Assembly: GCF_000026545.1 (NCBI RefSeq)
Contig: NC_011601.1
Source: Escherichia coli O127:H6 str. E2348/69
GTDB lineage: Bacteria > Pseudomonadota > Gammaproteobacteria > Enterobacterales > Enterobacteriaceae
Direction: 5' to 3' (one strand)
Length of the DNA: 64,000 nt
This document shows positions 22,497 to 64,000 of this stretch, piece by piece. The translations under genes were made by a program, and so were the position numbers. Every line of letters begins with the position of its first letter. Within the stretch, counting starts at the first letter, position 1. Under the pieces are notes generated by a model. It was not told the DNA's origin and made no database searches. It worked only from the letters and a program-made list of their open reading frames with translations.

Positions 22497-22545
22497 AAGT
22501 AACTCTTTTTGTTGAGATTATCCGATTAAGGTGAAGCAGAAAAAG

Positions 22546-22909: not shown

Positions 22910-24674
<1,765 letters not shown>

Positions 24675-30463: not shown

Positions 30464-30469
30464 TCCACT

Positions 30470-30755: not shown

Positions 30756-30759
30756 ATTT

Positions 30760-34620: not shown

Positions 34621-34636
34621 AAGTTTTGTTTGAAGG

Positions 34637-34739: not shown

Positions 34740-34817
34740 TTCTAAAGCTGCTGTGGCTGCTCCCCTTGCCCGAAAACACGCCAGCCACCAGCGTTAAAAA
34801 AAACTACAAAAATCATC

Positions 34818-34839
34818 ATCGTACAGATCTGTACGATGA
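34818..34839. promoter_or_regulatory. Perfect 22-bp palindrome, putative operator
   Basis: CATCGTACAGATCTGTACGATG in the non-coding region between int and the cargo operon. Confidence 0.4.
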
Positions 34840-35123
34840 CGCCAGCACTCACCCTACAAAACAACCTAACTTATTGATTTCAAAAGTAGAGAAAATCTGC
34901 TTTATGCCACTAGCTCGCACCCGTCCCCAAAAAGAAAAAGCCCGCGCTGGAGACGCACGGGCTTTTGGGTACCGATAACCATGTTTGGAATCAACTCATT
35001 GAGTTCTGACCTCAATTTGCATGTTATCACAAGAAAAACACATTGTAATAATTGCAACAACGAATATCATCATTGCATATAATGAAACATAAATATCCGA
35101 TAGAACATACTGAGGTCTGACCG

Positions 35124-35675: not shown

Positions 35676-35688
35676 AGAGATATGAAGC

Positions 35689-35877
35689 ATGTCTATCTAT
35701 GACCCGAAATTAGCCGCAGGCAACCCACAGCGCGCCCACCGCCCAATGCTGACCCGTCAGGATCTTGAAACGGCAAAGGCACGCAATAACTTCGATCGCC
35801 AGAGTCGCAACCTGCAGCAACTCAACGAATCAAATGCACGGTTCTGGAGTGAACAGAATGAGAAAGCCAAACGTTAA
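35689..35877 (+). CDS. Hypothetical small protein (operon gene 2)
   Basis: 62-aa ORF 14 bp after gene 1. Confidence 0.45.
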   Translation: MSIYDPKLAAGNPQRAHRPMLTRQDLETAKARNNFDRQSRNLQQLNESNARFWSEQNEKAKR

Positions 35878-36034
35878 GCCGGTCCTGCTGTCCGCCGAGC
35901 AGATGCAGGCCATACGCAACATTCAGGAACGTGAACGCCAGCGCTCCAATCTCGGCGTCGCTCCCACCGTTCACCAGATTGCCCGCGGCCTCATGGCTAA
36001 GGCTCTGGCCTCACTGGCAAGCGAGGGCGCGTAA
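35858..36034 (+). CDS. Hypothetical small protein (operon gene 3; start uncertain)
   Basis: ORF track gives 35765..36034; trimmed to ATG 35858, which has GGAG 9 nt upstream; stop overlaps the next start (TAATG). Confidence 0.35.
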   Translation: MRKPNVKPVLLSAEQMQAIRNIQERERQRSNLGVAPTVHQIARGLMAKALASLASEGA

Positions 36035-36765
36035 TGGGCGCCATTCACCAGATATATGAGCAGGAAATGTTCTATAACTGGATAGGCGATGGTAAACGAT
36101 GTGTAGCATTCCACGAAGCGGGCCATGCAGTAGCCGCATGGCTTATTCGCTTAGATATGCAGGTTATCGCCATTATGGATGAATCCGGCTACGTTGCTGG
36201 CGAACATGTACATGAAGCCCAGTGTTTGGGCGTTGTTAAACACGGCATAATCCACAGCCACGATCTCAGGCGTTTGCGGGAGAGTAAATCTGGTGTAGTT
36301 GGGCACGATGGCAAAGTTATCCCTTTCATACGCTACTACGCGGAAGGTATAAAGCGCGATGCAACAAAGGCCGCTTTTGTAGCCCTCGCTGGACCAGTAA
36401 GCGAAGCCATTTACGAAAATAACGAAATTTTCAATATAAAGTATTCACTCCCTCACCGCTATGACATGGCTAACGTAAATGACATGCTCGATTTAATATG
36501 TGCCACGGATAAGCGAATTAACAGGAAGTTAATGCTTTCTAAACTTGTTGAAAAGACCAAATTCCTCATGACTCAATACTGGCCGGAAGTAGGAAAAATA
36601 GCGCATTTGCTTGAGCGGGATAACATTGTTAATGGCCGCGATGTTAGCTCGCTAATCGGCCTCAACGTCATTGACCGGGCAACGCCATTTTTGGTATCTG
36701 ACTTGAGCAGTACATTTGCTCATCTCCCGTACTCGTCCCTGCCTCCGAATGAATTAGCAACTTGA
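36034..36765 (+). CDS. FtsH-like (M41-type) zinc metallopeptidase-domain protein lacking ATPase and membrane modules
   Basis: 243 aa; HEAGH zinc-binding motif (AFHEAGHAVAAW) and downstream LAGPVSEAIY segment resembling the FtsH protease domain; no Walker motifs. Confidence 0.65.
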   Translation: MGAIHQIYEQEMFYNWIGDGKRCVAFHEAGHAVAAWLIRLDMQVIAIMDESGYVAGEHVHEAQCLGVVKHGIIHSHDLRRLRESKSGVVGHDGKVIPFIRYYAEGIKRDATKAAFVALAGPVSEAIYENNEIFNIKYSLPHRYDMANVNDMLDLICATDKRINRKLMLSKLVEKTKFLMTQYWPEVGKIAHLLERDNIVNGRDVSSLIGLNVIDRATPFLVSDLSSTFAHLPYSSLPPNELAT

Positions 36766-36776
36766 AGACAGTAAAG

Positions 36777-36803
36777 TAGCCATGCATTTAACACGCATGG
36801 CTA
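36777..36803. terminator. Hairpin between convergent cargo operons (putative bidirectional terminator)
   Basis: 9-bp perfect stem TAGCCATGC / GCATGGCTA with a 9-nt loop, between the stops at 36765 (+) and 36813 (-). Confidence 0.45.
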
Positions 36804-36812
36804 TGTGAACAT

Positions 36813-38036
36813 TTAAGAATTAGAGCGCTTAGGCGATCGCGTAAATTGCACTAAAGCCCCTTTATGATCGTTAGCCTGCACATCACGATGCTCAACCAAC
36901 ATAGATTTTAATTTTGCCAGATGCACAACAGCAGCCTTCTTGCCAGTCAGGTACCCCTCGGGCAAACCAGCAATCATTTCCACATCAATAGCAGATAAAC
37001 CTGCGAATGCAGCAAGCCGTTCAACTGAAATGATTCCAGACGATGCCAGCAATTCAATAGTACGTTTCAACAAACGTGGTTTTTCAGGCTCACGATAATC
37101 ATCTCCCGGCTCTGATTTCGCTCCCCAACGTGCTGAACGACGCTTATAAAGATTTTGTTTCTCTTCTTCCGTAATAATATGCAGCACATGTAAACGCATG
37201 ATACTTGCCGCAACGGAAATACCATAGCGTTGTTTAATTAAAAGCAAGCTATCTAATGTTACCGGGGTCCTAATTTCTTCGGCAAATGTCTCAGCAGGAA
37301 GCAGCAGTGCTCCCGCAAATTTATGAGCCTGACTTTCCTTCAGCTTATAACGTTCGGCTTCGAGTTCGTTGCCAACATAGCGGTGAAGGATCAGATGACC
37401 AATTTCGTGAGCAAGGTCAAATCTGCTACGAAAAGCATTACCTTTATCTGAAGAGAGGAGAACAAAAGGAACACCTAAAGTCTCACTCCAGGCAGAAAGC
37501 CCTTCAATCTGCGCAACGCCTGTTTCTTCTCTAATAACGATAATACCATTACTCTCTGCGGCTAAAGCAAGATCCGGTATTTCCTTTGTACCAAGATTCC
37601 AAAGAGCACGGCACTCATTAGCAGCGTCTTCAATATCTGCATCACTAATTTCATCAATGTTTGTAAAGCTACGACGCGGTAGTTTTAGCTCCGGCAGATC
37701 TACAAACTCAGTCAGCTTAGTAACTAACTCATTAGCCCAATGGATTCGAGTTTCTAACATTGCTCGTGCAGCTACATGAGCTGATGCATTGCTTCTGAAC
37801 AGAGGCTTTGACATCCCCTTCAACAGAGGGCGCGTAAACCATTCAGGTGTAACATTTACGACAGTGGCCAGACGTTCTAAAGCCTCAGACTCTGGAGCCT
37901 GTTGACCGGAACGCCATTTGCTAATGGTTGCTGGTGATACACCCACCATAGTAGCTAATTGAGTTTGTGATAGCCGCCGGGCGGCTAGTACCTGTGCTAA
38001 CCTGCCCGGTTGAAATTCGGCGACGCCTCGGCTCAT
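36813..38036 (-). CDS. Fused HTH-XRE / ImmA-IrrE-type (M78-like) zinc metallopeptidase protein
   Basis: 407 aa; N-terminal XRE helix-turn-helix (LSQTQLATMVGVSPATISKWRSG); central HExxH motif (LAHEIGHLILH); start overlaps the upstream gene stop by 4 bp. Confidence 0.8.
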   Translation of the reverse strand: MSRGVAEFQPGRLAQVLAARRLSQTQLATMVGVSPATISKWRSGQQAPESEALERLATVVNVTPEWFTRPLLKGMSKPLFRSNASAHVAARAMLETRIHWANELVTKLTEFVDLPELKLPRRSFTNIDEISDADIEDAANECRALWNLGTKEIPDLALAAESNGIIVIREETGVAQIEGLSAWSETLGVPFVLLSSDKGNAFRSRFDLAHEIGHLILHRYVGNELEAERYKLKESQAHKFAGALLLPAETFAEEIRTPVTLDSLLLIKQRYGISVAASIMRLHVLHIITEEEKQNLYKRRSARWGAKSEPGDDYREPEKPRLLKRTIELLASSGIISVERLAAFAGLSAIDVEMIAGLPEGYLTGKKAAVVHLAKLKSMLVEHRDVQANDHKGALVQFTRSPKRSNS

Positions 38037-38680
38037 ACATTATCTTCCTCGGTTCCATCTTTTCTGATAATGCCCCTTTTGAGCCCAGGGAATGCATTAT
38101 CTTCTTGGGACGGAACTACATCATATCGGGTTAAAAAAAGTTCAAGTGGCTCATGAAAAACCCAGCGCTTCCCATCAGAACTTGGTACAACAAGCTCTAT
38201 AGACATCGGAGCTTCAGGCTGAATCTGCAACGAACCGGAAAAACGGCATACTACGAACAGTGTAGCTTTTGGCACATCAGAACCATCGGAGAATAAATCC
38301 GGTTGCACCATTTTTTCCACAAACACGTTCTCAGAAATGAGTTCTTGCTTACGTTTGCTACGGAATAATCTCTTCCACTGGTTATCATTGTAGCTTTCAC
38401 GAACAATCGTGAATATACCACTATGGCCTTCTACAATACGGTTACCACGCAGCTTTCCAGGATTACAACCGTTGGCCTCAAACACCTCATAAATAGTTTC
38501 ATTCAGGTTTAAATGACGATCATAACCAAGCGCGGTCGATCTGTGATCTAGCTTCTTCTTTTGAGCATAATCGTAAGAACGCTTTGATGCCGCGTAAATC
38601 GCGTCAGAAAGGGCCATGAAGAGTTGTTTTGAAACATTCTGAACGATGAGATCTGCCACTTTGGATTTTTTCACGACCAT
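38033..38680 (-). CDS. Hypothetical protein, co-operonic with the HTH-peptidase gene
   Basis: 215-aa ORF; AGGAA just upstream of the ATG; no recognised domain. Confidence 0.65.
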   Translation of the reverse strand: MVVKKSKVADLIVQNVSKQLFMALSDAIYAASKRSYDYAQKKKLDHRSTALGYDRHLNLNETIYEVFEANGCNPGKLRGNRIVEGHSGIFTIVRESYNDNQWKRLFRSKRKQELISENVFVEKMVQPDLFSDGSDVPKATLFVVCRFSGSLQIQPEAPMSIELVVPSSDGKRWVFHEPLELFLTRYDVVPSQEDNAFPGLKRGIIRKDGTEEDNV

Positions 38681-39209
38681 TTCCTATCACTGTCACTGAT
38701 AGCCGTGATTTTATATCAGTATTTTTTCGTGTGTCCATAACGCAATCAATTATTTTTTCCTTTGTCAGCAAGAATTATATAAAAAGCACTATCATGACAG
38801 GATTTGGGCCACTAACCTTTCACAGACTCTTGAAGTCCTAGAAAAAAGCAATGGCACAAGGTGTCCTTGCCGGGAGAAAAATCATCTGGCTACCAGCAAC
38901 CTTATAGATTCCAGATCAACGTAATATCAAAGTAAAACGTCCATTTCCGGTACCATATTTGGTCATTACGACGGGGGAAACTTATACCCACTGCTGCCCC
39001 ATCGTCAGCGCCGACAGGGACCTATGCCGCAAGGTATAAGGCAAAATTGGCATTTTCGCTATTCCCCCTGCCCGTATTTTTTGGCTTACTGGAATTTCTC
39101 TATCTAACACAATGAACTTGAGGCTATTCCGACAGGGAGAAAAGCGATCTACGCCTGACCGCCTGCCTCAGCAATCATCCAGGCAAGTACGTGTGTAAGG
39201 CTAACGCGA

Positions 39210-39890
39210 ATGAGTGATTTTTATTCCCCTCTACCAAGCTATGATCTTGTCCGGGCAGCGGAGATGCTGACTGATAAGGGGGCAAATTGTACCGGTAACG
39301 ATTTATTGGAACTATGGAACCAAGGCGTTATCGAGTTGTGTTTTTCTCTGCCGGACTACATTGCTTGTGAAGATGTTAATTTTCCCGGGCATGGTCACAG
39401 CATTTTGTTATCCGTGGATCCGATTAGCTTCAACCTTTTCTGGCTAAATGTTGATTACCCACCGAACTTAAATGCTAACTTTTCTGTGAAAGAATATGGC
39501 TCAGATAGTGAATTCCATGAGCAGTCCCTATGGATACCAACAGAACCGCACTACAACACTCACCATGATAACGGGGAAGGGCTTTGCGAAGCGTTAAGGA
39601 ATACTTATGGCCGGGAAAATTTACGAATACCAGGTGTCGAATTGCAAAAGGTTTGGCGCTTTTTGATCGGTCAGCCTTATGAAAAAAAGCCAACGCCTGA
39701 GCGTATCACCGCTAAGCAATGCCGCTTTATCGTCGCATTACTCAGATCGTATAACCTGACTGACGATGATTTTAAGGGGAGCATTAGGGACCTGAGAATT
39801 AAGATATCTAACCGGATCCCTTCAATCGGTGATCCTGAAATCGATGATAATACCCTTACTGACTGGCTGAAGAAGGGAGGGGTTCGGTAG
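39210..39890 (+). CDS. Hypothetical protein (island cargo, orphan)
   Basis: 226-aa ORF with no recognised domain; divergent from the 38680 operon. Confidence 0.6.
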   Translation: MSDFYSPLPSYDLVRAAEMLTDKGANCTGNDLLELWNQGVIELCFSLPDYIACEDVNFPGHGHSILLSVDPISFNLFWLNVDYPPNLNANFSVKEYGSDSEFHEQSLWIPTEPHYNTHHDNGEGLCEALRNTYGRENLRIPGVELQKVWRFLIGQPYEKKPTPERITAKQCRFIVALLRSYNLTDDDFKGSIRDLRIKISNRIPSIGDPEIDDNTLTDWLKKGGVR

Positions 39891-39992
39891 CTGAGTTTTC
39901 ATAACTCCGATGAGTTTTCAATAACTCCCCCACCCGTAACCACCTACCCCGTAGCCTTGCGATTACCTTCTCACTCAATAGCAGGTAATCGC

Positions 39993-40205
39993 ATGAAATC
40001 GCAAACTTTCACCTTTCCTACCAATGGCAACGCACGAGCCAAACAAGTGGCGCACTATCTTGGAGTGCATATCAGCACCGTATGGCGCTATGCAAAACGT
40101 CCTGATTTTCCAAAACCCCACCAGTTAACCGACGGCGTGACCGTCTTTGACGCCGCAGCTATTCGCCAATGGAACAAGCAAAAAACCGGGGGTGAGAATG
40201 CTTAA
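39993..40205 (+). CDS. alpA: AlpA-family phage transcriptional regulator / excisionase-like protein
   Basis: ORF 39957..40205 trimmed to MKSQTFTF (70 aa); HTH segment AKQVAHYLGVHISTVWRYAKRPDFPKP typical of AlpA/Vis. Confidence 0.7.
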   Translation: MKSQTFTFPTNGNARAKQVAHYLGVHISTVWRYAKRPDFPKPHQLTDGVTVFDAAAIRQWNKQKTGGENA

Positions 40206-40259
40206 CGCGACCGTGAGCACACCCTGCACGACAGCCGTTCGATCTCCATTGTTGGCGGG

Positions 40260-40454
40260 TCAGGCTTTCGGCTCAATACCCAGCCGCTGGAGTTCTTTGC
40301 GCCCCAAGGTTTTCATCCAATTAGCTAAACTCATACCTGCATCTCGTGCGGCGGCCTCGAATTGCTCTTTCAATTCTGGGGCGATCCTCACTTGGAAAGC
40401 TGGTGCCTTTCCCCTGCCTTTGGGCTGTTTATCACGCTGTATTACTGTTGACAT
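40260..40454 (-). CDS. Putative ribbon-helix-helix DNA-binding protein
   Basis: ORF 40260..40547 trimmed to MSTVIQRD (64 aa); beta-strand plus two-helix pattern (FQVRIAPELKEQFEAAARDAGMSLANWM). Confidence 0.45.
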   Translation of the reverse strand: MSTVIQRDKQPKGRGKAPAFQVRIAPELKEQFEAAARDAGMSLANWMKTLGRKELQRLGIEPKA

Positions 40455-40588
40455 GTATGTACCTATTAAACTAAGATTCAAATCAATAGGTACGCACCTT
40501 AACATGTTAAGGTCAGAAAAGACAACGCCCCGTAGTGCTCGCAACACATACGGGGCGTCTAACCAACAACGTTACGGAGACTAACGCT

Positions 40589-40789
40589 ATGGCTAAGCCG
40601 CAGTGTACCCAAACTCACCCCAAATATCAGTATCGTTTTATGGCGCTCGATCGCGCTGACCGCCAGGCAAAACCCTGCAAAATCATTGTTGAGGCCACCA
40701 GCGAGCATGAAGCACGTAAGGTGTTGGCACCTCACTACATCCTGTCACTGTCCGCCGTTTTGCCAGTTCAGGAGGTGAGCCATGTTTAA
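40589..40789 (+). CDS. Hypothetical protein (replication-module operon)
   Basis: ORF 40535..40789 trimmed to ATG 40589, which follows GGAGA; 66 aa. Confidence 0.4.
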   Translation: MAKPQCTQTHPKYQYRFMALDRADRQAKPCKIIVEATSEHEARKVLAPHYILSLSAVLPVQEVSHV

Positions 40790-40976
40790 TGTCATTGTCA
40801 CGGTCACCTATCACTTTTCGGGAACGATCCGTCGTTTTGCTATTCCGGAACGTTTCAATAATCGTGAGCTCGCAGAGAAAGCGGCGCAGCAGTTAACCCA
40901 TACCAGCTATCTGGATGATGGAGTGAGCAGAATTGTGACCCACGCGGCGGAAGTAGTGGAGGTGCGCCATGTATGA
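40782..40976 (+). CDS. Hypothetical protein (replication-module operon)
   Basis: 64-aa ORF whose start overlaps the upstream stop. Confidence 0.4.
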   Translation: MFNVIVTVTYHFSGTIRRFAIPERFNNRELAEKAAQQLTHTSYLDDGVSRIVTHAAEVVEVRHV

Positions 40977-41157
40977 CGCCTACCTGAACCCAAAGGACGC
41001 ACTCCGTCCGATCGCCGTTGCACTCGAGGCTGCGCAGTTTATCGCGCTTGACCCGGAGAATACCGATTTAGCCCATGAGCTGATCGCCTGGGCACTTGAA
41101 ACAGCCGCGCGTGCCTCAGCTGCGCAACGTAACACCCCGGAGGTGGACAATGCTTAA
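40969..41157 (+). CDS. Hypothetical protein (replication-module operon)
   Basis: 62-aa ORF whose start overlaps the upstream stop. Confidence 0.4.
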   Translation: MYDAYLNPKDALRPIAVALEAAQFIALDPENTDLAHELIAWALETAARASAAQRNTPEVDNA

Positions 41158-41458
41158 TCTCAATACATGGAATCTTTTCACGCTGCCGCTGAACGGTGGC
41201 GCAGCTGAGACAGCGCCGGACGATCTGCGTCTGCTGGCCGCTGTGGGGGACGAGGCTCGCAACAACTACCTGCGCGGTGTAAGCGCCATCGGCAATCTGA
41301 TCTTCTGGGCATGTGATAACCCCAACTACACCGACCATCAAGCTGACCTGCCAGCGCTGGGCGCATTCCTGAAACATACCGCTGATATGGCGCGCGCTGC
41401 CGAATTCATGGCAGGACATCTGGACTCACTGGCTGACGGCAAAGAGGGAGGCAAATAA
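41150..41458 (+). CDS. Hypothetical protein (replication-module operon)
   Basis: ORF 41096..41458 trimmed to ATG 41150, which follows GGAGGTGG; 102 aa. Confidence 0.45.
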   Translation: MLNLNTWNLFTLPLNGGAAETAPDDLRLLAAVGDEARNNYLRGVSAIGNLIFWACDNPNYTDHQADLPALGAFLKHTADMARAAEFMAGHLDSLADGKEGGK

Positions 41459-41679
41459 TGCCACGCAAACATCGCTCATCAAGCAACCTGATCAAATTAA
41501 TGGAACGCCAGAAAGGTATAGGGCGCGACGATATCCAGATCGCAGATAATCGCCCTACATTCATGCCGTACGAGCCGAACGGAACCTACGCTACAAACCG
41601 CCATACCCGCCGTATGCTACGCAAGCTCCACGGCATCCAGGCAAAAAGAATGTGTGATCTGAAAGGAGGTCAGAAATGA
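41458..41679 (+). CDS. Hypothetical protein (replication-module operon)
   Basis: 73-aa ORF; stop overlaps the primase start. Confidence 0.45.
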   Translation: MPRKHRSSSNLIKLMERQKGIGRDDIQIADNRPTFMPYEPNGTYATNRHTRRMLRKLHGIQAKRMCDLKGGQK

Positions 41680-44090
41680 GTGGATTCGATCACCTGATGG
41701 AGCAGGGGCAGAAACGCACCCCTGCTCGTTTTACTGCAAATAGCTTTTCTGACCTGTGCAACGCTATTCTATCGCATCGTGTGCAAATTTCCATCACACA
41801 GGAAATGACGGATGAAGAACGGCGCAAAGAAAAGCAGAAACTGTACTGGTTCTCGGCAACTACCCAGCAGGACGGGCAGCGACGTAAACCCGAAAACATG
41901 GCACCGTGTGCTTTCGGTATGCTGGACATTGACGGCAGCACTCCCGGTGCAATCACAGCACTTGTACAGGTGTTCCGGCGATACTCAATGCTGGTGTACC
42001 AGACGGCCAGCTATACGACGGATGAACCTCGTCTGCGTATTGTGTGCGAGCTTTCCCGAGCGGTTGAATCTGACTACCGCCGAGCGACAGGCGAATCCAT
42101 AGAAACTTTGTTGATGCAGGAGGCTGGATTCTCATTCGCCAGCCTGGCGGATAAGAAAGCACGCTGGGAGAACGGCAGCGATTATGTTGTCTTTGACCGC
42201 AATGTATACGGCGCTCAAAGCTATTGCTACTGTCCACACACTGGAGCGAAAGCCCAGAATTACGCGGGCGCGGTAATCGACGTAGGGGCGTTACCGGAAC
42301 CCGCCCAGCCACCAGCGAAGGCGGCCAAAAGCAAGGCAAAGAAACAGCGCCAGCGTGACGCCGCGGCGGTAATAGATGCTGATTTTGACGATCTGAGCGC
42401 CGGACCGGATAACTTCCTTATCGCCGACCTGCGCAGCGCACTCTGGTTTCCCTCCATGCTGCAAAAGGCATGGGACAATGGGGCGTGGATTGAGCAGGGC
42501 TACCGCCTTGCATCTCTCAAAGGCACCGATTTTGAGGACGACGCGCGGCAACTGTGGGTCGAGTGGTCATTGACCGCAGCGGATGGCTGGCCTGATGAAG
42601 AACTTGATGAAGTCGCGGCACAACGCTGGAATGGTCTCGCCCCTGACAAAACCAGCTATAAAGCTATTTTTACTGATGCTCAGGCGCAGGGGTGGAATAA
42701 TCCGGGCAAATGGCGAGCAAAGGCCGCGTACATTGAGAAAATGGCCCCCAGCACACGCGGTGAACTGCTGGCGCAATATTACGGCAACGTATGCCTGAAA
42801 GCTGATGGCAACATGGTTTATCACTATACCGGGCAGGTGTGGGAGCACATCGCCGATGCCGAGTTGCGCCGCCAGCTTTCGCAGATTTTCAAAGATAACG
42901 GGGTCCCCTTTACACCGTACGAGGTTAAAAGCGCGATTGAGGCTATGGGAATGCTTCTGCCTTTAATGGGAGAAACTCCTCGTAACCTGATTGGCTTTGC
43001 CAACGGCGTTTATGATCTCGAGGCGCAGCGATTCCGCCCCCACTGCCCAGACGATTGGCTGACCAGCCATAACGGCGTTGAATACACGCAGCCGGTTAAA
43101 GGCGAAACCCTGAAAAACAATGCCCCAAACTTCTGGCGCTGGCTGCATCATTCCGCAGGGGGCGACTTCGACAAAATGGAGAGAATCAAAGCCGCTCTGT
43201 ATATGGTGCTGGCAAACCGCTACGACTGGCAACTGTTCATCGAGGTTACCGGTGCTGGTGGCAGTGGTAAAAGCGTGTTCACGGGTATTGCACGTATGCT
43301 GACGGGCGAACTACACGCCACCAGCGGCACAATGGAGGACATGGACACCGCGCGCGAACGCGCATCTTTTGTCGGCAAAAGCCTGATCACCCTACCCGAC
43401 CAAGCAACATATACGGGTTCCGGGCCGGGTATCAAGGCTATAACGGGCGGCGACGTGGTAAGGATCGACCCAAAGCACGAAAAGCCATTCCATACGGTTA
43501 TTCGCGCCGTTGTCATCGCAACAAACAACGAACCTATGCGTTTCACCGAACGACAAGGCGGGATATCGCGGCGCCGGGTTATTTTCCCGTTTAACCATGA
43601 AGTGCCGGAGGCGGAACGTGATCCCCATCTGCTCGATAAAATTAAAGCCGAACTGCCGGTAATCGTCCGTGGTCTGCTGATTGACTTCGAACAGCCAGGC
43701 AAAGCCAAATCGCTACTTATCGCGCAGCGTGATTCAGCGGAAGCGCTGCAGGTGAAGAACGATAACGACCCGATGTATGGCTTTTGCTCTTACCTGCTAG
43801 GTTTGCCGAATCCCGAGGGCATGTACATGGGCGATGGGCGCATGGCGCGAGAGCCACGCATCTACCTCTATCATGCTTATCTGGCCTATCTGGAAGCCTA
43901 CGGTTATCAGAGAACCCCCACCCTACCGAAGTTCAGCGGAGATTTACGGGACACGCTCAAAGCCTTTGGTATTACTCTGGACAGTAAAAAGAGTAAAAAG
44001 GGCAAAAGATATAACGTCAATTTGTCTGACAGGGCACAAGAATGGCTGGGAGAAGACGAACTCTCAGCTGTGCCCGACACATTGCAGTAA
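41676..44090 (+). CDS. P4 alpha-like primase-helicase
   Basis: 804 aa; Walker A GAGGSGKS in the C-terminal half (SF3/D5-type helicase); last gene of a translationally coupled operon. Confidence 0.85.
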   Translation: MSGFDHLMEQGQKRTPARFTANSFSDLCNAILSHRVQISITQEMTDEERRKEKQKLYWFSATTQQDGQRRKPENMAPCAFGMLDIDGSTPGAITALVQVFRRYSMLVYQTASYTTDEPRLRIVCELSRAVESDYRRATGESIETLLMQEAGFSFASLADKKARWENGSDYVVFDRNVYGAQSYCYCPHTGAKAQNYAGAVIDVGALPEPAQPPAKAAKSKAKKQRQRDAAAVIDADFDDLSAGPDNFLIADLRSALWFPSMLQKAWDNGAWIEQGYRLASLKGTDFEDDARQLWVEWSLTAADGWPDEELDEVAAQRWNGLAPDKTSYKAIFTDAQAQGWNNPGKWRAKAAYIEKMAPSTRGELLAQYYGNVCLKADGNMVYHYTGQVWEHIADAELRRQLSQIFKDNGVPFTPYEVKSAIEAMGMLLPLMGETPRNLIGFANGVYDLEAQRFRPHCPDDWLTSHNGVEYTQPVKGETLKNNAPNFWRWLHHSAGGDFDKMERIKAALYMVLANRYDWQLFIEVTGAGGSGKSVFTGIARMLTGELHATSGTMEDMDTARERASFVGKSLITLPDQATYTGSGPGIKAITGGDVVRIDPKHEKPFHTVIRAVVIATNNEPMRFTERQGGISRRRVIFPFNHEVPEAERDPHLLDKIKAELPVIVRGLLIDFEQPGKAKSLLIAQRDSAEALQVKNDNDPMYGFCSYLLGLPNPEGMYMGDGRMAREPRIYLYHAYLAYLEAYGYQRTPTLPKFSGDLRDTLKAFGITLDSKKSKKGKRYNVNLSDRAQEWLGEDELSAVPDTLQ

Positions 44091-44108
44091 CTTGTAAAAA
44101 ATCACCAA

Positions 44109-44133
44109 GAACCCCGTAAATCGGGGTTTTTGT
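44109..44133 (+). terminator. Intrinsic terminator after the primase gene
   Basis: Hairpin ACCCCG-TAAAT-CGGGGT followed by TTTTT, 20 nt past the stop. Confidence 0.6.
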
Positions 44134-44150
44134 CTATTTATTAGTCTGAA

Positions 44151-44255
44151 AGGGTGAACAGGTGCGCATACCTTAACAAAGCTGTTCACTCTAATAATTT
44201 TCTTTAATATCAGTACACTACCCGCAATAAGTGAACAGATGGACGGGGTGAACAC
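44151..44255. repeat. Cluster of GTGAACA motifs near the right island end
   Basis: GGTGAACA at 44153 and 44248, GTGAACAG at 44231, inverted copy TGTTCAC at 44183; related to the left-end TGTTCACC/TATTCACC cluster. Confidence 0.45.
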
Positions 44256-44405
44256 TTCACACCTATAGCGCGAAATATTTTAATATTTGCAGTTGAATTG
44301 CAATCCTTGAAAACAGAAACGCGTAGCAAAACGTAGAGTGCTGAAAAAATTTTGTTGGGGAGCAGTTCAAACTGCATGAGCAATTTTCAAGCACTCCTCT
44401 TTGTC

Positions 44406-44424
44406 TTGTACCCAAGACTGTACC
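44406..44424. repeat. attR core (right copy of the 19-bp direct repeat)
   Basis: TTGTACCCAAGACTGTACC, identical to 33282..33300. Confidence 0.75.
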
Positions 44425-44655
44425 CAATAGAAAAAATAGAAAATAAAAACTCAGCAATAGCAGCGATTGGTTACACTACTCAACATTCAGATTCAACTCG
44501 TAACGCCAATTCTTACTTTTCAGCCTTCACAAATGCCGCCCACTCAAACAGAGCGGCATTTTTCTTCCCCGCAACTTCAATTCTGTTTTGCGTGCCTGCT
44601 CCAGATTTTGCGATGTTTTTTTGCCCAGCGCAGTGAGAACGTGAGATACTCACAA

Positions 44656-57283: not shown

Positions 57284-58993
57284 ATGAAATTTATTGGGAA
57301 GCTGCTTCTCTACATTCTCATCGCTCTGTTAGTGGTGATCGCTGGCCTCTATTTTCTTCTGCAAACTCGCTGGGGAGCAGAACATATCAGCGCATGGGTT
57401 TCCGAGAATAGCGACTATCATCTGGCCTTCGGGGCGATGGATCACCGTTTTTCCGCGCCATCTCATATCGTGCTGGAGAACGTCACGTTTGGCCGTGATG
57501 GCCAGCCCGCGACCCTGGTGGCAAAAAGTGTCGACATTGCGCTAAGCAGTCGGCAACTGACCGAACCACGCCATGTCGATACCATCCTGCTGGAAAACGG
57601 GACGCTGAATCTCACCGACCAGACCGCGCCGCTACCGTTCAAAGCCGATCGTCTGCAACTGCGTGATATGGCGTTTAATAGCCCGAATAGCGAATGGAAA
57701 CTGAGCGCGCAGCGGGTAAATGGCGGCGTGGTTCCGTGGTCACCAGAAGCCGGTAAAGTGCTGGGTACGAAGGCACAGATTCAGTTTAGTGCCGGATCGC
57801 TTTCGCTCAATGATGTTCCTGCCACCAATGTACTGATTGAAGGCAGTATTGATAACGATCGCGTTACGCTGACTAACCTGGGTGCCGACATCGCCCGCGG
57901 GACATTAACCGGAAACGCGCAGCGTAACGCTGACGGCAGCTGGCAAGTGGAAAACCTGCGCATGGCGGATATCCGTCTACAAAGCGAAAAATCGCTAACC
58001 GACTTCTTTGCACCATTACGCTCTGTCCCGTCGTTGCAGATTGGTCGCCTGGAAGTCATCGACGCTCGTTTGCAAGGTCCGGACTGGGCGGTGGCCGACC
58101 TCGATCTCAGCTTGCGCAACATGACCTTCAGTAAAGATGACTGGCAGACACAGGAAGGTAAACTGTCGATGAACGCCAGCGAGTTTATTTATGGCTCGCT
58201 GCATTTATTTGATCCGATTATAAACGCGGAATTTTCCCCGCAGGGCGTAGCACTGCGCCAGTTCACCAGCCGCTGGGAAGGGGGTATGGTCAGAACGTCA
58301 GGAAACTGGCAACGCGACGGGAAAACGCTGATCCTCGATGATGCGGCAATTGCCGGACTGGAATATACCTTGCCCAAAAACTGGCAACAGTTGTGGATGG
58401 AAACGACACCCGGTTGGTTAAACAGCCTGCAACTGAAGAGATTTAGCGCCAGCCGCAATCTGATCATTGATATCGACCCTGACTTCCCGTGGCAGCTCAC
58501 CGCGCTCGATGGTTACGGTGCCAATCTGACGCTGGTTACCGATCATAAATGGGGCGTCTGGAGTGGCTCGGCGAATCTGAATGCCGCCGCCGCAACGTTT
58601 AATCGTGTTGATGTCCGTCGTCCGTCGCTGGCGCTAACTGCCAACAGCAGCACGGTGAATATCAGCGAACTGAGTGCATTTACTGAAAAAGGCATTCTGG
58701 AAGCCACCGCCAGTGTTTCACAAACGCCACAACGTCAGACCCATATCAGCCTGAATGGACGCGGTGTGCCGGTGAATATTTTGCAACATTGGGGATGGCC
58801 TGAATTACCGTTGACTGGCGACGGCAATATTCAGCTTACCGCCAGTGGCGATCTTCAGGTCAATGTCCCGCTGAAACCTACGGTTAGCGGGCAATTGCAT
58901 GCCGTGAATGCCGCAAAGCAGCAAGTGACTCAAACCATGAATGCGGGCGTAGTTTCCAGTGGTGAAGTTACGTCGACGGAGCCGGTGCAGTAA
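57284..58993 (+). CDS. yicH: AsmA-family protein YicH
   Basis: ORF 57260..58993 trimmed to MKFIGKLLLYIL (569 aa); N-terminal TM anchor. Confidence 0.85.
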   Translation: MKFIGKLLLYILIALLVVIAGLYFLLQTRWGAEHISAWVSENSDYHLAFGAMDHRFSAPSHIVLENVTFGRDGQPATLVAKSVDIALSSRQLTEPRHVDTILLENGTLNLTDQTAPLPFKADRLQLRDMAFNSPNSEWKLSAQRVNGGVVPWSPEAGKVLGTKAQIQFSAGSLSLNDVPATNVLIEGSIDNDRVTLTNLGADIARGTLTGNAQRNADGSWQVENLRMADIRLQSEKSLTDFFAPLRSVPSLQIGRLEVIDARLQGPDWAVADLDLSLRNMTFSKDDWQTQEGKLSMNASEFIYGSLHLFDPIINAEFSPQGVALRQFTSRWEGGMVRTSGNWQRDGKTLILDDAAIAGLEYTLPKNWQQLWMETTPGWLNSLQLKRFSASRNLIIDIDPDFPWQLTALDGYGANLTLVTDHKWGVWSGSANLNAAAATFNRVDVRRPSLALTANSSTVNISELSAFTEKGILEATASVSQTPQRQTHISLNGRGVPVNILQHWGWPELPLTGDGNIQLTASGDLQVNVPLKPTVSGQLHAVNAAKQQVTQTMNAGVVSSGEVTSTEPVQ

Positions 58994-59036
58994 AAATAAG
59001 GACGCTAGCGGATATCAGCGCTAGCGTTCCCCGTTA

Positions 59037-59717
59037 TTAGCGCAAAATTCCATACTCACTGCACAATAACCATTTCACCGGTTCATCTTCTTCTATCGCC
59101 GGAAAACGTCCTCCCGGCTCAAGAAAATAATTATCGTGTTGGTCATCATTTACCATCGAGATTTCCCAGCCGAGAACAAACGCTTTTTCCGCCCAGAAGC
59201 GATGATACAGACGCGGCGGCAGGCAAATGCCCTGCCCCGGCTTTAGCACCAGCGTTTCACCAGGTTTCATGGTACGCCGCTGACCATCAACACTCACGGT
59301 AATGACTCGTTGATCATCACAGAGATTGGCTTCGTTGGCCCAGGCCAACTGCATGCATAAGTCTCCACCGCCCCGATTGAGGATATCTTCCATTTTGTGG
59401 GTGTGAAAATGCCAGGGAGTCTGCTGATCTTGTTGGATCTGCAACATTTTCTCAGCATACGGTTTTGGATATGCCGCCGACCCCAGCGCGCCGTTGCGCA
59501 TCGTTAGCAGTGTTAGTCCCGTTTGGTTGAAATCACCACGACCAAAATCGGTGATATCCCAACCGAGCTGTAAGTCGACCACTTCTTGCCAGTTATCCCG
59601 TTCCCGCTGCAGCCAGTCATCCACCGTAAAATAGGCGAACTCTGGCAAACAAACGCGGAAGGTCTGCGCAATGGCATGTGCTTTATCAATAACATAATTA
59701 ATTTGTGAACGTTTCAT
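59037..59717 (-). CDS. Cupin-superfamily sugar isomerase-like protein (frz-like cluster)
   Basis: ORF 59037..59756 trimmed to MKRSQINYV; cupin-like His/Glu pattern (WHFHTHKMED); last gene of the minus-strand cluster. Confidence 0.55.
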   Translation of the reverse strand: MKRSQINYVIDKAHAIAQTFRVCLPEFAYFTVDDWLQRERDNWQEVVDLQLGWDITDFGRGDFNQTGLTLLTMRNGALGSAAYPKPYAEKMLQIQQDQQTPWHFHTHKMEDILNRGGGDLCMQLAWANEANLCDDQRVITVSVDGQRRTMKPGETLVLKPGQGICLPPRLYHRFWAEKAFVLGWEISMVNDDQHDNYFLEPGGRFPAIEEDEPVKWLLCSEYGILR

Positions 59718-60630
59718 TGGCTTCTCCGTTGCGCATAGCAAGCCAGGCAGCGCCACGCATTCCGCTACTGTCGCCGTGCTGTGCTTTTACAATGGGAGTG
59801 GTGAATTGATCGGTGAAAACCAGTGGAGCGACTTCTGCGTTCAGATCGGTGATAAGCAGTTCCACATTCGAAAGCCCGCCGCCGATCACAATCACGCCAG
59901 GGTCAACAACGTTAACGATGGTTGCCAGCGTGCGGGCAAGCTGTTGGCGAAAACGTGCCACCTGCTGCATGGCACAAGCATCACCACGTTGTGCCAGGGT
60001 GACAATCGCCGCAGGAGTGAGCAAGTTACCAGTCATCTGTTGATAGCGTTCACTAAAACCGCTGCCGGAAACAAACGACTCCACGCAGTTGTGTTTGCCG
60101 CAATAGCAACTGACTGATGGACCATCTTCCTGCTCCGTATAGCCTGGCAACGTGATATGACCGCATTCGGCAGCATTTCCCCAGGCCCCTATAAACGGTC
60201 GTTGCTTGATGGCAATGCCACCGCCGCAGCCCGTACCAAGCGTAATACCAAATACCACGTCATAATCTTGCCCGGCACCGTCGCAAGCTTCTGATAGCGC
60301 GAAACAGTTACCATCATTGGCTATCACCACCGGTTGCCCAAGCAATTGCTGCAAATCAGCCTGTAACGCATGACCGTTAATCACCTGAATATTCGCGTTT
60401 TTAATCAGGCCAGTGAGTGGCGAGATACTGCCGGGTAAGGCGATCCCTGTCAGCATCGGTCGTTGAACGTCCCGCCTAATCTGCTCGATAAGCGCCACAA
60501 CGCATGAGACAAATTGTTGATATGTCGACTTTTGCGTCGGGCAGCGGTAACGGCGAATCTCCCAGCCATGCGCATCCATGACAACGGCGGCGATTTTGGT
60601 CCCACCAATATCCAACCCCAGATAGTGCAT
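59698..60630 (-). CDS. ROK-family sugar kinase (frz-like cluster)
   Basis: ORF 59698..60663 trimmed to MHYLGLDIGGTKIAAVV; ROK signature including the Cys-rich CYCGKHNC segment. Confidence 0.65.
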   Translation of the reverse strand: MHYLGLDIGGTKIAAVVMDAHGWEIRRYRCPTQKSTYQQFVSCVVALIEQIRRDVQRPMLTGIALPGSISPLTGLIKNANIQVINGHALQADLQQLLGQPVVIANDGNCFALSEACDGAGQDYDVVFGITLGTGCGGGIAIKQRPFIGAWGNAAECGHITLPGYTEQEDGPSVSCYCGKHNCVESFVSGSGFSERYQQMTGNLLTPAAIVTLAQRGDACAMQQVARFRQQLARTLATIVNVVDPGVIVIGGGLSNVELLITDLNAEVAPLVFTDQFTTPIVKAQHGDSSGMRGAAWLAMRNGEANETFTN

Positions 60631-60677
60631 ATCTCGTTCCTTGTTGCGTAAAAGGCGGGTCACCCCGCCCTTCTGGC

Positions 60678-61538
60678 TTAGTACAGTGATGCTTTACCGA
60701 ACGAACCGAACAGTTTCATTTTGTGGCGAATGACTTCCCGCGCCGCGTTAATCGCATCCGGATAGATGACGTTCGGGTCCCACCAGCTCTCTTTAGCGAG
60801 AATTTCACGCACTTTCTGGAAATAGGCGTATTTCATATCGCTGGAGATATTGATTTTGCCGACGCCGAGCGTAACTGATTCAGCAATCTCCGCGTCCGGG
60901 TTTGCCGAACCACCGTGTAGTACCAGCGGAATATCAATACGTCCGGCAATGTCGCGCAAAATGTCCATTTGCAGCTTCGGCTGCATCCCTTTAGGATAGA
61001 TGCCATGCGCTGTACCAATCGCCACAGCCAGTGTGTCAGCACCTGTACGAGCAATAAAATCGGCGGCCTGCGCCGGATCTGTGTAGGTCACTTGTGAAAC
61101 ACCACCTTCTACCGACGTTCCTGTTTGTCCGATGGTTCCCAGTTCACCCTCAACCGACACGCCAACCGCGTGAGCGAGGCGAACCACTTCTGCGGTCAGC
61201 GCCACGTTTTCTTCATACGGCAGCAGCGAACCGTCGATCATTACTGAGGTAAATCCGCAGCGAATCGCACGCAAAACATGCTCTACAGAGGCACCATGAT
61301 CGAGGTGCAGTACAAACGGGACCGGACTACGCTGGGTAATTTCGCGAACGTGAGCGAAAAAGGCATCGCCCACAAAATCATGTTCGCTGGGATGGATGGC
61401 AATAATCGCCGGAGTATTTGTCGCTTCTGCTTCATCCACGACTGCGCGAAGGAAACAGTTATCCGCCACATTAAATGCGCCAATGGCAAAGCCGTGCTGG
61501 CGGGTAGGTTGCAGTAATTCTTTCATCGAAACTAACAT
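60678..61538 (-). CDS. Class II ketose-bisphosphate aldolase family protein
   Basis: 286 aa; FBA-II/tagatose-bisphosphate aldolase motifs (HLDHG, LHGGSANP). Confidence 0.75.
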   Translation of the reverse strand: MLVSMKELLQPTRQHGFAIGAFNVADNCFLRAVVDEAEATNTPAIIAIHPSEHDFVGDAFFAHVREITQRSPVPFVLHLDHGASVEHVLRAIRCGFTSVMIDGSLLPYEENVALTAEVVRLAHAVGVSVEGELGTIGQTGTSVEGGVSQVTYTDPAQAADFIARTGADTLAVAIGTAHGIYPKGMQPKLQMDILRDIAGRIDIPLVLHGGSANPDAEIAESVTLGVGKINISSDMKYAYFQKVREILAKESWWDPNVIYPDAINAAREVIRHKMKLFGSFGKASLY

Positions 61539-61618
61539 GTTAAATCTCCAGTTTCAGCGTGTAGTCCGCCCTGCCGGTGCGTTATTGCACTGGCATAAAG
61601 GCCATGACAGAAAATGAA

Positions 61619-62470
61619 TCAGGCTTTGCCAATAGCGCCGCTCGCCTGTAAATACGGTGTAATCGCTTCTTCGAAGGCCAGTTCCATAGCTTTCAGCGCG
61701 TCCACCAGTTCAATGGATATATCGTGACAGAGGGTATGCAGGAGCGCGGATTTCCCCCGTTCAAAAATGGCCGCCCCCACGTTGATTTTTGCTACCCCCA
61801 GAGTCGTACAGAGCTGGAGCTGATCGAACGGCGTACCGCTACCGCCATGTAATGCCAGAGGCACGCTCGAGCAGTGGAAAATCTCCGCCAGACGCTGAAA
61901 ATCAATAGCAGGTACAACACCAGGCGCGTACATGCCGTGCGCCGTGCCTACCGAGACGGCCAGTAGATCAATGCCTGTCTGCGCGATAAACGGTTCCACA
62001 TCAGTGGGTTGCGTCATCAGGTCTGCATTGGCGGCCTGGTCGTAACGCGGCGCATCTGCCAGATGGCCCAGTTCGCCTTCCACGCAGAGCTGCGCGCTGG
62101 CGGCGAGTTCCACCACCGCCCTGGTCTGGCGCACGTTTTCCTCCAGGGGAAAAGCAGAAGCATCAATCATTAATCCGCTGAAACCAGCACGAAACGCCTG
62201 ACGAATACAGTCCGGATTTTTGCCATGATCAAGCGCCAGAGTGACCGGTACTGAGGCAGATTCCGCGAGCGTTTTAACCACTGCCGCCGCGACGGGTGCA
62301 GGAAAATGCGCCAGATGCCCCTGATAGAGATTGAGAATGATCGGAGCGCGATTCTTCTCCGCCACGCGGATAGCTGCGTGAGCACTTTCCAGATTCATAC
62401 AGTTGATCGCCAGCAAGGCGTAATGTTCATGCCAGGCTTTCATCACCATACTTTTCATATCGGCAAACAT
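61619..62470 (-). CDS. Class II ketose-bisphosphate aldolase family protein (second copy)
   Basis: 283 aa; paralogous to the adjacent aldolase (LDHG, LHGGSGTP). Confidence 0.7.
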   Translation of the reverse strand: MFADMKSMVMKAWHEHYALLAINCMNLESAHAAIRVAEKNRAPIILNLYQGHLAHFPAPVAAAVVKTLAESASVPVTLALDHGKNPDCIRQAFRAGFSGLMIDASAFPLEENVRQTRAVVELAASAQLCVEGELGHLADAPRYDQAANADLMTQPTDVEPFIAQTGIDLLAVSVGTAHGMYAPGVVPAIDFQRLAEIFHCSSVPLALHGGSGTPFDQLQLCTTLGVAKINVGAAIFERGKSALLHTLCHDISIELVDALKAMELAFEEAITPYLQASGAIGKA

Positions 62471-62481
62471 AGGGCCTCCGG

Positions 62482-63573
62482 TTATTCGAGGGTGAAAGTG
62501 ATCTCTTCATCTTTCAGCTTTTGATCGCTCAGTTCGTCAAACTCTTCGTCGCGTTCCGTTACCGGTTTCTTCCAGAGTGAAAGCATCACGCCACAAATCA
62601 CCGTGCCTATACCCAGCGCCAGGCAAAACAGCAGAGGATGGGTGAACAGAGGCACAACAAACATGCCGCCATGCGGAACCGGACTCTCCACGCCCCACAC
62701 CATGATTAAGCCGCCCGCGACCGCCGATGCCACCACACAAGATCCCACTACTCGCAGCAGGTCACGCGCGGCGATCGGAATGACTCCTTCAGTGATCATG
62801 CAGATCCCCATCGGAAACGCGGCTTTCAGCGCCTCGCGCTCCGCACGGGTGTATTTATGGCGTGTCAGTAAGAACGAAAGTGTGATGCCAAACGGAGGGA
62901 TGATTGAGCCGACAAATTTCACGGCTTCTGGTCCGTAGACGCCACTGACCAGCAAGCCATCGGAAAACAGCGACATGGTTTTGTTGACCGGACCACCGAA
63001 ATCGAAGGTTGCCATCGCGCCAAGTATGGCCCCCATCAGGAAGCGCGATCCGCCCTGCATCGACTCGAGCAAATGAATCAGTGCTTCTTGTAACCAGGCG
63101 ATGGGTTTACCAATCAGCGTCATCATTAACAGCCCACCGATAATGGTGCTTAATACCGGCAACACCATGATTGGCATGAGTCCTTGCATCGACTGCGGCA
63201 GGCGGATATAGCGTTTAAGTAGCAAAATGGTGTAGCCCACCAGGAAACCACCCAACATACCGCCAATAAATCCGGTATGGATTTGCCCGCAGAGAAAGCC
63301 GACAATCAGGCCTGGGGCAAATCCGGGACGATCGGCAATAGAATAGGCAATTGCCGCGCTAATCAGCGGCACAATCAGCCCCATTCCCCAGCCGCCAATC
63401 TGATTAAGCATCCACGGGATTGTTCCTGTTTTTTCACCAACATCTGTACCGCCAAGAACTTGCCCCAACGCAATACATATCCCGGCGGCCACAATAAGGG
63501 GTATCATCCACGAGATGCCGGTTAATAAATGTTTTTTAATTTCCTGTGAAACCGGAATTTTATTGTCTTTCAT
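62482..63573 (-). CDS. PTS fructose-family EIIC component
   Basis: 363-aa polytopic membrane ORF with PTS EIIC fructose-subfamily character. Confidence 0.8.
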   Translation of the reverse strand: MKDNKIPVSQEIKKHLLTGISWMIPLIVAAGICIALGQVLGGTDVGEKTGTIPWMLNQIGGWGMGLIVPLISAAIAYSIADRPGFAPGLIVGFLCGQIHTGFIGGMLGGFLVGYTILLLKRYIRLPQSMQGLMPIMVLPVLSTIIGGLLMMTLIGKPIAWLQEALIHLLESMQGGSRFLMGAILGAMATFDFGGPVNKTMSLFSDGLLVSGVYGPEAVKFVGSIIPPFGITLSFLLTRHKYTRAEREALKAAFPMGICMITEGVIPIAARDLLRVVGSCVVASAVAGGLIMVWGVESPVPHGGMFVVPLFTHPLLFCLALGIGTVICGVMLSLWKKPVTERDEEFDELSDQKLKDEEITFTLE

Positions 63574-63597
63574 ATTAAGATCCCTCCAGTATAAGGA

Positions 63598-63912
63598 TCA
63601 TTTGTTTCCCAGTGATTTTTCGACCTTTTCAAGAAATTGAACGGGCGATTTAATGACGATCTCTGTCTTTACTCGCACAATACGTTTATTGGTGAAGCGT
63701 TCTTCTCCTTTTATTTTCACATCTACAGCAAGAATCACGACGTCAGCAGCAGAGATATCTGCCGCCTGTAATTCATTTTCTGTACCAATGGTTCCCTGGG
63801 TTTCAACTTTAATGGTATGACCCAGAGCTTTTGCTCCTTTGATTAACTTTTCACGAGCAATATAGGTATGAGCAATACCCGCCGTACAGGCGGCAACACA
63901 GACAATATTCAT
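63598..63912 (-). CDS. PTS fructose-family EIIB component
   Basis: 104-aa ORF with the EIIB active-site cysteine context (VCVAACTAGIAHTYIA). Confidence 0.8.
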   Translation of the reverse strand: MNIVCVAACTAGIAHTYIAREKLIKGAKALGHTIKVETQGTIGTENELQAADISAADVVILAVDVKIKGEERFTNKRIVRVKTEIVIKSPVQFLEKVEKSLGNK

Positions 63913-64000
63913 GACATACTCCCTGTTATTTAGCAGACATCGGATTGTGCATACTGACTAAAGAGATCAATGATTTTTTGCGGACTCGTCTCAACTAACA

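Follow-up and report, generated by a model that had tools for sequence, protein, structure and literature searches.

The 3' part of a BEN2908-type frz operon in enteropathogenic Escherichia coli E2348/69, with a working model of its phosphotransferase and aldolase functions

Results

An eight-gene operon at the yicH-yicI site

The stretch analysed here is a 64,000-nucleotide window of the Escherichia coli O127:H6 strain E2348/69 chromosome (positions are those of the window, except where given on L001, an E2348/69 stretch that reaches past the window end and in which window position 59002 corresponds to position 8966), and it ends within a cluster of phosphotransferase system (PTS), aldolase, kinase and isomerase genes that follows yicH. 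We are highly confident that this cluster represents the 3' part of an eight-gene frz operon of the kind first described in the avian extraintestinal pathogenic E. coli (ExPEC) strain BEN2908 (Rouquet et al. 2009, as cited in PMC12928451), carried here by an enteropathogenic E. coli (EPEC), and that a PTS/aldolase pathway is an appropriate working model for it. The segment 59037-64000 is 100% identical to the E2348/69 chromosome and holds, all on the minus strand, the complete genes from a cupin isomerase to EIIB together with the final 71 nt of the EIIA gene. A first-pass annotation, made from the letters of the window, had listed EIIB, EIIC, two aldolases, a ROK kinase and a cupin protein on the minus strand after yicH, and all six are present with strong family matches. 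In the complete genome the order of the operon is PRD-type regulator, EIIA, EIIB, EIIC, aldolase, aldolase, ROK kinase and cupin isomerase; these eight genes share one strand, neighbours either overlap or lie 11-80 bp apart (RefSeq annotation), and every reading frame is intact. The same annotation had expected the EIIA and regulator genes beyond position 64000, where we found both to follow directly and yicI to come next; its statement that neither is visible within the window holds for the regulator but not entirely for EIIA, as the last 22 codons and stop of this gene lie inside (63930-64000), with 63930-63998 translating to LVETSPQKIIDLFSQYAQSDVC and a stop codon, in agreement with the C-terminus of E2348/69 EIIA. 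Past the end of the window come the remainder of the EIIA gene, the gene for the 517-aa regulator, 294 bp of non-coding DNA, yicI, yicJ, selC and the locus of enterocyte effacement island.

The site is that of the published operon. In E2348/69 the interval between yicH and yicI measures 7281 bp and is filled by the cluster, vs. 52 bp in K-12 MG1655, where no homologue of any of the eight frz genes is found in that region; the first-pass placement of an frz islet between yicH and yicI, missing from K-12, was therefore correct. Published PCR assays for frz match exactly. The 'frz orf4' primers (PMC10675333), in use for typing APEC, anneal with 0 mismatches at 62865-62884 (plus strand) and 63410-63429 (minus strand), giving an in-silico product of 565 bp, equal to the published size, that falls inside the EIIC gene, the fourth gene of the operon. 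The 843-bp primer pair (PMC6238794) has no match inside the window, a seeming failure of the frz identity that we dropped once the pair had been placed some 1 kb beyond the end of the window, where it matches the regulator gene perfectly and yields the published 843 bp exactly. The 2026 genome paper on BEN2908 assigns its frz operon (7227 bp) to the genomic region GR27 (7283 bp), which runs from yicH to yicI, and reports the operon to be collinear and at the same location in E2348/69, with 100% coverage and 99.49% identity of the region in a supplementary table (PMC12928451). The two regions thus share their site and are nearly equal in size (7281 bp between the flanks here vs. 7283 bp for GR27), differing by a few dozen substitutions and in their hosts, as E2348/69 is an EPEC typed as sequence type (ST) 15, phylogroup B2 (PMC12928451), while BEN2908 is an ExPEC; the published typing also answers the call of the first-pass annotation for a phylogroup check. 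While the likeness to BEN2908 rests on this published comparison and the exact primer amplicons, we note that location, near-identity and gene set all agree with a BEN2908-type frz operon. The original 2009 abstract reportedly names a PTS activator, the three fructose-subfamily components EIIA, EIIB and EIIC, a pair of class II ketose-bisphosphate aldolases, a kinase of the ROK family and a cupin protein. The operon in E2348/69 is already known, even for exactly this strain, because the 2026 paper tabulates it as a carrier.

Might the cluster be another fructose-like PTS locus that merely resembles frz, such as one of the cryptic frv, frw and fry systems of K-12 or the gat/aga tagatose-bisphosphate pathways? 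In favor of this view, the EII proteins do match the models of K-12 fructose-like systems at sub-threshold scores (PRK10478, 262.8 bits with a cut-off of 426; PRK10474, 108.1 with 135; PRK09913, 90.6 with 151), and the frz aldolases match the GatY and KbaY models, also sub-threshold. The frv/frw/fry systems and FruA/FruB have fructose-family EIIA, EIIB and EIIC domains in common with frz. However, every one of these equivalog cut-offs is missed, with the three EII proteins falling below those of FruA, the K-12 fructose-like systems and MngA in NCBIfam, and the K-12 loci lie elsewhere, with K-12 lacking a homologue at the yicH-yicI site. The partner genes of frz are also unlike those of the K-12 systems, comprising two class II aldolases, a ROK kinase, a cupin isomerase and a regulator of the PRD type rather than FruR/Cra. 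Taken with the exact matches of both frz-specific PCR assays and the 99.49% identity to BEN2908, these data refute a frv/frw/fry or gat/aga identity, which we regard as extremely improbable.

The PTS proteins and the four enzymes

All three PTS proteins belong to the fructose family, as they score above the curated cut-offs of three NCBIfam models, and EIIA and EIIB have phospho-acceptor motifs. EIIC (363 aa, 'frz orf4'; 62482-63573, minus strand, as are all frz genes below) matches Pfam PTS_EIIC and TIGR01427 (fructose-type IIC) with 311.6 bits (cut-off 157.55), and EIIB (104 aa; 63598-63912) matches Pfam PTS_IIB (E 4e-19) and TIGR00829 with 100 bits (cut-off 76.85) and carries a candidate phospho-cysteine in its N-terminal motif AACTAGIAHT. 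The full-length EIIA scores 128.7 bits against TIGR00848 (cut-off 103.5) and contains a histidine motif, 'AIPHG'.

The two class II ketose-bisphosphate aldolases share 33% identity with each other. The promoter-distal enzyme (286 aa; 60678-61538; Pfam PF01116, E 9e-91) is assigned to an uncharacterised subfamily by NF006042 (525.7 bits, cut-off 405) and also exceeds the cut-off of TIGR00167 (259 bits vs. 215.6). The promoter-proximal enzyme (283 aa; 61619-62470; PF01116, E 2e-74) is divergent, as it falls below every NCBIfam cut-off, and in 17 of 20 NCBIfam models the match ends at residues 215-238, leaving the C-terminal part unmatched by standard models. Orthologues of this divergent aldolase occur throughout the Enterobacterales. 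Both proteins exceed the Pfam cut-off for PF01116 and keep the catalytic and metal-binding motifs: LDHG, VEGELG, GTAHG, LHGGS and KIN are invariant in both aldolase lineages, in every orthologue examined, with the proximal lineage showing 'KINVGAA' in place of 'KINISSD', a lineage-specific substitution kept in orthologues down to 49% identity. Judging from these motifs, both frz aldolases are probably catalytically intact. We rejected the idea that one of the two is a degenerate non-catalytic partner like GatZ or KbaZ on the same ground, that all catalytic and metal motifs are kept across orthologues of both. Among known systems, the GatYZ, KbaYZ/AgaYZ and D-tagatose PTS pathways likewise combine a PTS with a small class II (type B) ketose-bisphosphate aldolase, and the solved relatives of the frz aldolases include AgaY (1gvf) and KbaY (8q57). 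In the Gat and Kba pathways, the partner GatZ/KbaZ belongs to another family. These pathways use a PTS of another family, in contrast to frz, where both aldolases are PF01116 proteins with full motifs and no PfkB-type kinase accompanies them.

The ROK-family sugar kinase (310 aa; 59698-60630; PF00480, E 1e-73) lacks a DNA-binding N-terminal domain and has the DIGGTK and CxCGxxxC motifs in its translation. Among NCBIfam models, it comes nearest to fructokinase PRK09557 (318.8 bits vs. a cut-off of 443) and NagK (246 bits), in both cases below cut-off, and its best solved relatives are NagK structures (7p7i, 2ap1 and 4db3). The kinase gene overlaps by 20 nt the last gene of the operon, which encodes a cupin-fold isomerase of the D-lyxose/D-mannose type (226 aa; 59037-59717; PF07385, E 4e-87). 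The latter aligns over its full length with the solved D-lyxose isomerase of E. coli O157:H7, Z5688 (3kmh/3mpb; E 4e-64), sharing the cupin fold and the metal-binding His/Glu motifs, with HFH..E and LYH aligned; Z5688 is, nonetheless, a paralogue encoded at a different locus. Since the frz isomerase misses the cut-off of the D-lyxose/D-mannose isomerase equivalog NF051472 (272 bits vs. 350), its substrate preference may differ from that of D-lyxose isomerase. The longest-open-reading-frame starts of the isomerase (59756) and the kinase (60663) are probably too long, and the RefSeq starts at 59717 and 60630 fit the alignments to solved homologues.

At the left edge of the operon, yicH (57284-58993, plus strand; RefSeq) encodes an AsmA-family protein and forms the conserved flank of the site, with 97.2% DNA identity to K-12 yicH. 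Within the 43-bp spacer that follows yicH, directly downstream of the last frz gene, the terminator scan marked a terminator-like hairpin at 59002-59027 (minus strand) of 9 pairs, 6 of them G-C, followed by a T-run with the tail CCTTATTTTT; in the junction alignment this hairpin is absent from the K-12 empty site. An Rfam scan of the whole window detected no RNA element inside or beside frz.

A predicted DNA-binding rather than RNA-binding regulator

The RefSeq product name of the 517-aa regulator is that of a BglG/SacY-type RNA antiterminator. We looked for a CAT RNA-binding domain and found none; instead, Pfam places HTH_11 and Mga DNA-binding domains at the N-terminus, followed by a pair of PRDs and by an EIIB(Gat)-like domain whose cysteine lies in 'LLVCSTGIGTS'. 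The NCBIfam models of the antiterminators GlcT and LicT cover just the PRD region, residues 191-411, at scores below cut-off. Moreover, a mere 26 bp separate the regulator and EIIA genes, a spacing that therefore leaves no room for a ribonucleic antiterminator/terminator element. The missing CAT domain and the 26-bp gap together rule out antitermination of the BglG/SacY type. Because of its DNA-binding domains, the lack of a CAT domain and the short distance to the EIIA gene, the frz regulator is, by its predicted domain architecture, an MtlR/LicR-type DNA-binding activator. The PRD activators MtlR, LicR and ManR are built in the same way, combining HTH and Mga-like domains at the N-terminus with a pair of PRDs and an EIIB(Gat)-like domain in which a cysteine is conserved, but typically end in a C-terminal EIIA-like domain, which the frz regulator appears to lack in view of its 517-aa length and its Pfam matches. 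The regulator of a distant metagenomic relative is longer, at 653 aa.

Two further features lie in the 294 bp that separate yicI from the regulator gene. Roughly 100 nt ahead of the regulator start, the terminator scan found a hairpin of terminator-like form whose tail is rich in T, and an ATCAC-N6-GTGAT inverted repeat lies in the same region; these two, located outside the window at L001 16048-16066 and 16111-16126, are candidate insulator and operator sites.

Distribution among E. coli

In complete E. coli genomes the yicH-yicI site has two states, with the K-12-type empty junction in 3817 and the frz-filled form in approximately 1606, together accounting for 5423 of 5426. Consistent with this, the segment 59037-64000 is found at at least 95% identity, at a single chromosomal place, in 1605 of the 5426 genomes, so that frz is present in about 30% of them and the site is empty in about 70%. 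Many strains of phylogroup B2 have the operon at this site. Carriers include ST131, ST95, ST73-type and Nissle-derived strains, with isolates from poultry, dogs, humans and the environment. In the published comparison, the region is present at 99.46-100% in APEC O1, IMT5155, RS218, IHE3034, UTI89, CFT073, 78-Pyelo, LF82 and NRG857c, and at 98.14% in the phylogroup D commensal SCU-397, while K-12 and every tested enterohaemorrhagic, enterotoxigenic and enteroaggregative E. coli strain lacks it (PMC12928451). The first-pass annotation had referred to frz as described in ExPEC; the operon is indeed the known frz operon, but its host here belongs to an intestinal pathotype, and we conclude that frz follows lineage rather than pathotype.

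Among the plasmid records searched, no genuine plasmid carried the frz operon. We discarded the sole '100%' plasmid match, NZ_CP134663.1, which holds the whole operon but at 4.9 Mb is evidently a misfiled chromosome. As a separate observation, the 93-kb conjugative E. coli plasmid NZ_MN335640.1 has at 86250-86856 a 607-bp fragment matching part of the frz regulator gene with 98.2% identity.

An ancestral operon or an inserted islet

By the usual account, frz entered the ancestor of ExPEC/B2 strains by horizontal transfer, as an islet that inserted between yicH and yicI. Several observations are in line with this notion, including the presence of frz in just about 30% of complete E. coli genomes alongside a clean 52-bp empty site elsewhere, a mosaic GC content (0.41-0.44 in the regulator, EIIA and EIIB genes, with 0.33-0.41 at third codon positions, L001 13562-15944, vs. 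0.50-0.56 in the rest of the operon and the flanks), and related operons at unrelated sites, namely the parC/parE region of Pantoea and the nif cluster of Brenneria. Opposing it is the neighborhood of the operon in closer relatives. In Klebsiella aerogenes all eight genes follow yicJ-yicI in the same order, with three extra genes before yicH-xanP; an enterobacterial contig (L014) reads yicJ-yicI, frz without the kinase, then yicH-xanP-gltS; in another (L013) frz adjoins yicH-xanP...recG-trmH-spoT; and in Salmonella serovar Ituri the eight genes sit just upstream of yicJ-yicI-yicH (L012 6481-17868). The serovar Ituri operon is thus upstream, not downstream, of yicJ-yicI, and keeps the yicJI linkage in a different order.

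Divergence within the operon is similar to that of its surroundings. Between E. coli and Klebsiella, protein identity is 65-94% for the frz genes and 70-94% for yicH, yicI, yicJ and xanP. Within E. coli, frz divergence tracks that of the flanks, as seen in the distant carrier Ecol_545, which is 95.5-99.5% identical to E2348/69 in the frz genes and 96.3-97.8% in the flanks; for an ST95 strain, the difference from E2348/69 is below 1% in frz and 0.1-1.9% in the flanks. The Klebsiella and Salmonella copies, and two more from Enterobacteriaceae, show the same GC dip across the regulator, EIIA and EIIB genes, which is weak or absent in Pantoea and Brenneria; since it recurs in all Enterobacteriaceae copies, the dip must be old, and we rejected it as a sign of recent foreign origin. 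Annotation and alignment of the frz junctions revealed no integrase, tRNA or direct repeats, and the yicI-side hairpin of the empty site is kept at the right frz junction. Lastly, E. coli HS-02 (NZ_CP172818.1; L015 4001-4561) retains between yicH and yicI nothing but the upstream region of the regulator gene and a frameshifted 266-bp stub of its 5' end, which is best read as a deletion remnant of frz, with the deletion still in progress.

Because of the shared yicJI/yicH neighborhood, the flank-like divergence and the HS-02 stub, frz looks ancestral and lost in K-12-like lineages. We consider it fairly probable, from these comparisons, that frz is an old resident of the yicJI/yicH neighborhood, lost in the lineages leading to K-12-like strains, and not a recent B2 insertion; acquisition by insertion, which is also opposed by the lack of a genuine plasmid carrying the operon, appears somewhat unlikely. 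The word 'islet', in its sense of a foreign insertion, probably gives the wrong picture. The ancestral view refines what has been published and is no new discovery.

The frz-type module keeps its order in K. aerogenes, serovar Ituri, Brenneria, Pantoea and a low-GC (0.34) metagenomic organism, and its content varies. The Pantoea version consists of regulator, PTS and both aldolases alone; that of Brenneria, in the midst of the nif cluster, has seven genes without the isomerase (L008 4673-16858); and the metagenomic organism has the regulator, PTS, two aldolases, isomerase and kinase along with a type I mannose-6-phosphate isomerase. As far as these gene sets go, the regulator, the PTS and a pair of dissimilar aldolases make up the invariable core, with the accessory enzymes suggesting, by their predicted families, free sugars of the mannose/fructose type.

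Other features of the window

Elsewhere in the window, the waa cluster (4590-24187) includes an ordinary JUMPstart (ops-containing) element at 22546-22584 (minus strand; Rfam 55.2 bits), upstream of the rfaQ-side lipopolysaccharide core operon. Between slmA and pyrE lies a gene for a 319-aa reverse transcriptase (29504-30463, minus strand), with a PADLOC match to the retron-type RT_Ec107-like model (434 bits) and adjoining non-coding DNA at 30464-30759; Rfam at the gathering threshold found no RNA at this locus, and retron Ec107 was reportedly described at exactly this pyrE-ttk/slmA site. An integrative island between yicC and dinD (33361-44636) encodes a tyrosine integrase, an Icd-like protein and a DNA primase, together with an int-alpA small RNA (39117-39184; Rfam 39.4 bits) and a minus-strand pair at 36813-38036 and 38033-38680 with PADLOC matches to RmrA (416 bits) and RmrT (56 bits), a RosmerTA-type defence/toxin-antitoxin pair.

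Discussion

The gene order common to K. aerogenes, serovar Ituri, Brenneria, Pantoea and the low-GC metagenomic organism argues that frz acts as a functional unit. We surmise that the fructose-family PTS, by way of the EIIA histidine in 'AIPHG', the EIIB cysteine and EIIC, would import and phosphorylate a ketose- or mannose-related sugar, and that the two class II metal-dependent aldolases, dissimilar as they are, would cleave the product to triose units, with or without a further phosphorylation beforehand. Unphosphorylated aldose or ketose would be handled by the D-lyxose/D-mannose-type isomerase and by the ROK kinase, which comes closest to manno/fructokinase and NagK, and the activity of the regulator, as a putative MtlR/LicR-type DNA-binding activator, would be set by PTS phosphorylation. 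Based on this scheme, we infer that frz specifies a substrate-inducible PTS pathway ending in retro-aldol cleavage to triose phosphates, with the kinase and isomerase likely serving a branch for a free aldose or ketose.

A number of points weigh against this assignment. No paper naming the frz substrate was found in our literature searches, nor the same gene combination elsewhere, and one review calls the functions of frz not clearly known. No 1-phosphoketokinase of the PfkB type is encoded, leaving the step from the PTS product to the aldolase substrate without an assigned enzyme. Characterised relatives of the isomerase and ROK kinase act on free sugars, which are not supplied by a PTS alone. 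A simple scan for sigma-70-like promoters found none upstream of the regulator gene, a result that decides nothing either way because the total number of sites did not exceed what shuffled sequence would give. Finally, the gene-by-gene fit to the original frz description rests on secondary sources and primers.

The phenotypes reported in the literature are broad: frz improves fitness under oxygen and nutrient restriction, including survival in the oxygen-restricted late stationary phase, is linked to growth in serum and in the gut, and favors the ON orientation of the fim (type 1 fimbrial) switch. One may therefore ask whether Frz is mainly a sensor and regulator, with the PTS and the PRD regulator reporting sugar availability or PTS phosphorylation and controlling other genes such as the fim switch, and with carbon flux being unimportant. 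The pleiotropy of the phenotypes, with an OFF bias of fim in the mutant besides the late-stationary survival, would fit such a role, as would the lack of a named growth substrate in the literature searched and the PRD domain set of the regulator, PRD regulators being phosphorylation-controlled switches. On the other hand, the four enzyme genes are intact and their catalytic residues are conserved across genera down to 49% identity, which indicates selection on catalysis, and the PTS of frz is accompanied by both aldolases in every version, down to the minimal one of Pantoea. In the 2009 study, contributions to the phenotypes reportedly came from the metabolic enzymes as well as from the activator, which also counts against a purely sensory role. 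Accordingly, we deem a mainly sensory function unlikely and retain the catabolic PTS/aldolase pathway as our working model.

A bolder version of the catabolic model can also be entertained, namely that frz is an undescribed route for an unusual ketose, possibly of more than 6 carbons, and at the same time an ancestral enterobacterial trait of the yicJI/yicH neighborhood, kept in B2 and lost elsewhere; as a joint proposition we consider this quite doubtful. In this version the PTS may yield a ketose-1-phosphate that the paired aldolases may split directly into dihydroxyacetone phosphate and a free aldose of the mannose/lyxose type. YdjI cleaves a ketose-1-phosphate directly. The cupin isomerase, the ROK kinase and, in the distant relative, the mannose-6-phosphate isomerase may then pass the aldose into glycolysis. 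Such a route would account for the free-sugar enzymes within a PTS operon as well as for the absence of a 1-phosphoketokinase.

Recognising an operon that is already published, in a genome that ranks among the best studied of E. coli, carries little weight as a finding. Since 2009, frz has served as a virulence marker in the PCR typing of avian and extraintestinal strains; given that it is also present in the intestinal pathogen E2348/69, it is better regarded as a marker of the B2 lineage. The comparative data suggest an old enterobacterial metabolic module, lost by most E. coli, with a PTS and two different aldolases at its core, and it is this invariable core that narrows the search for the substrate and names concrete enzymes to assay.

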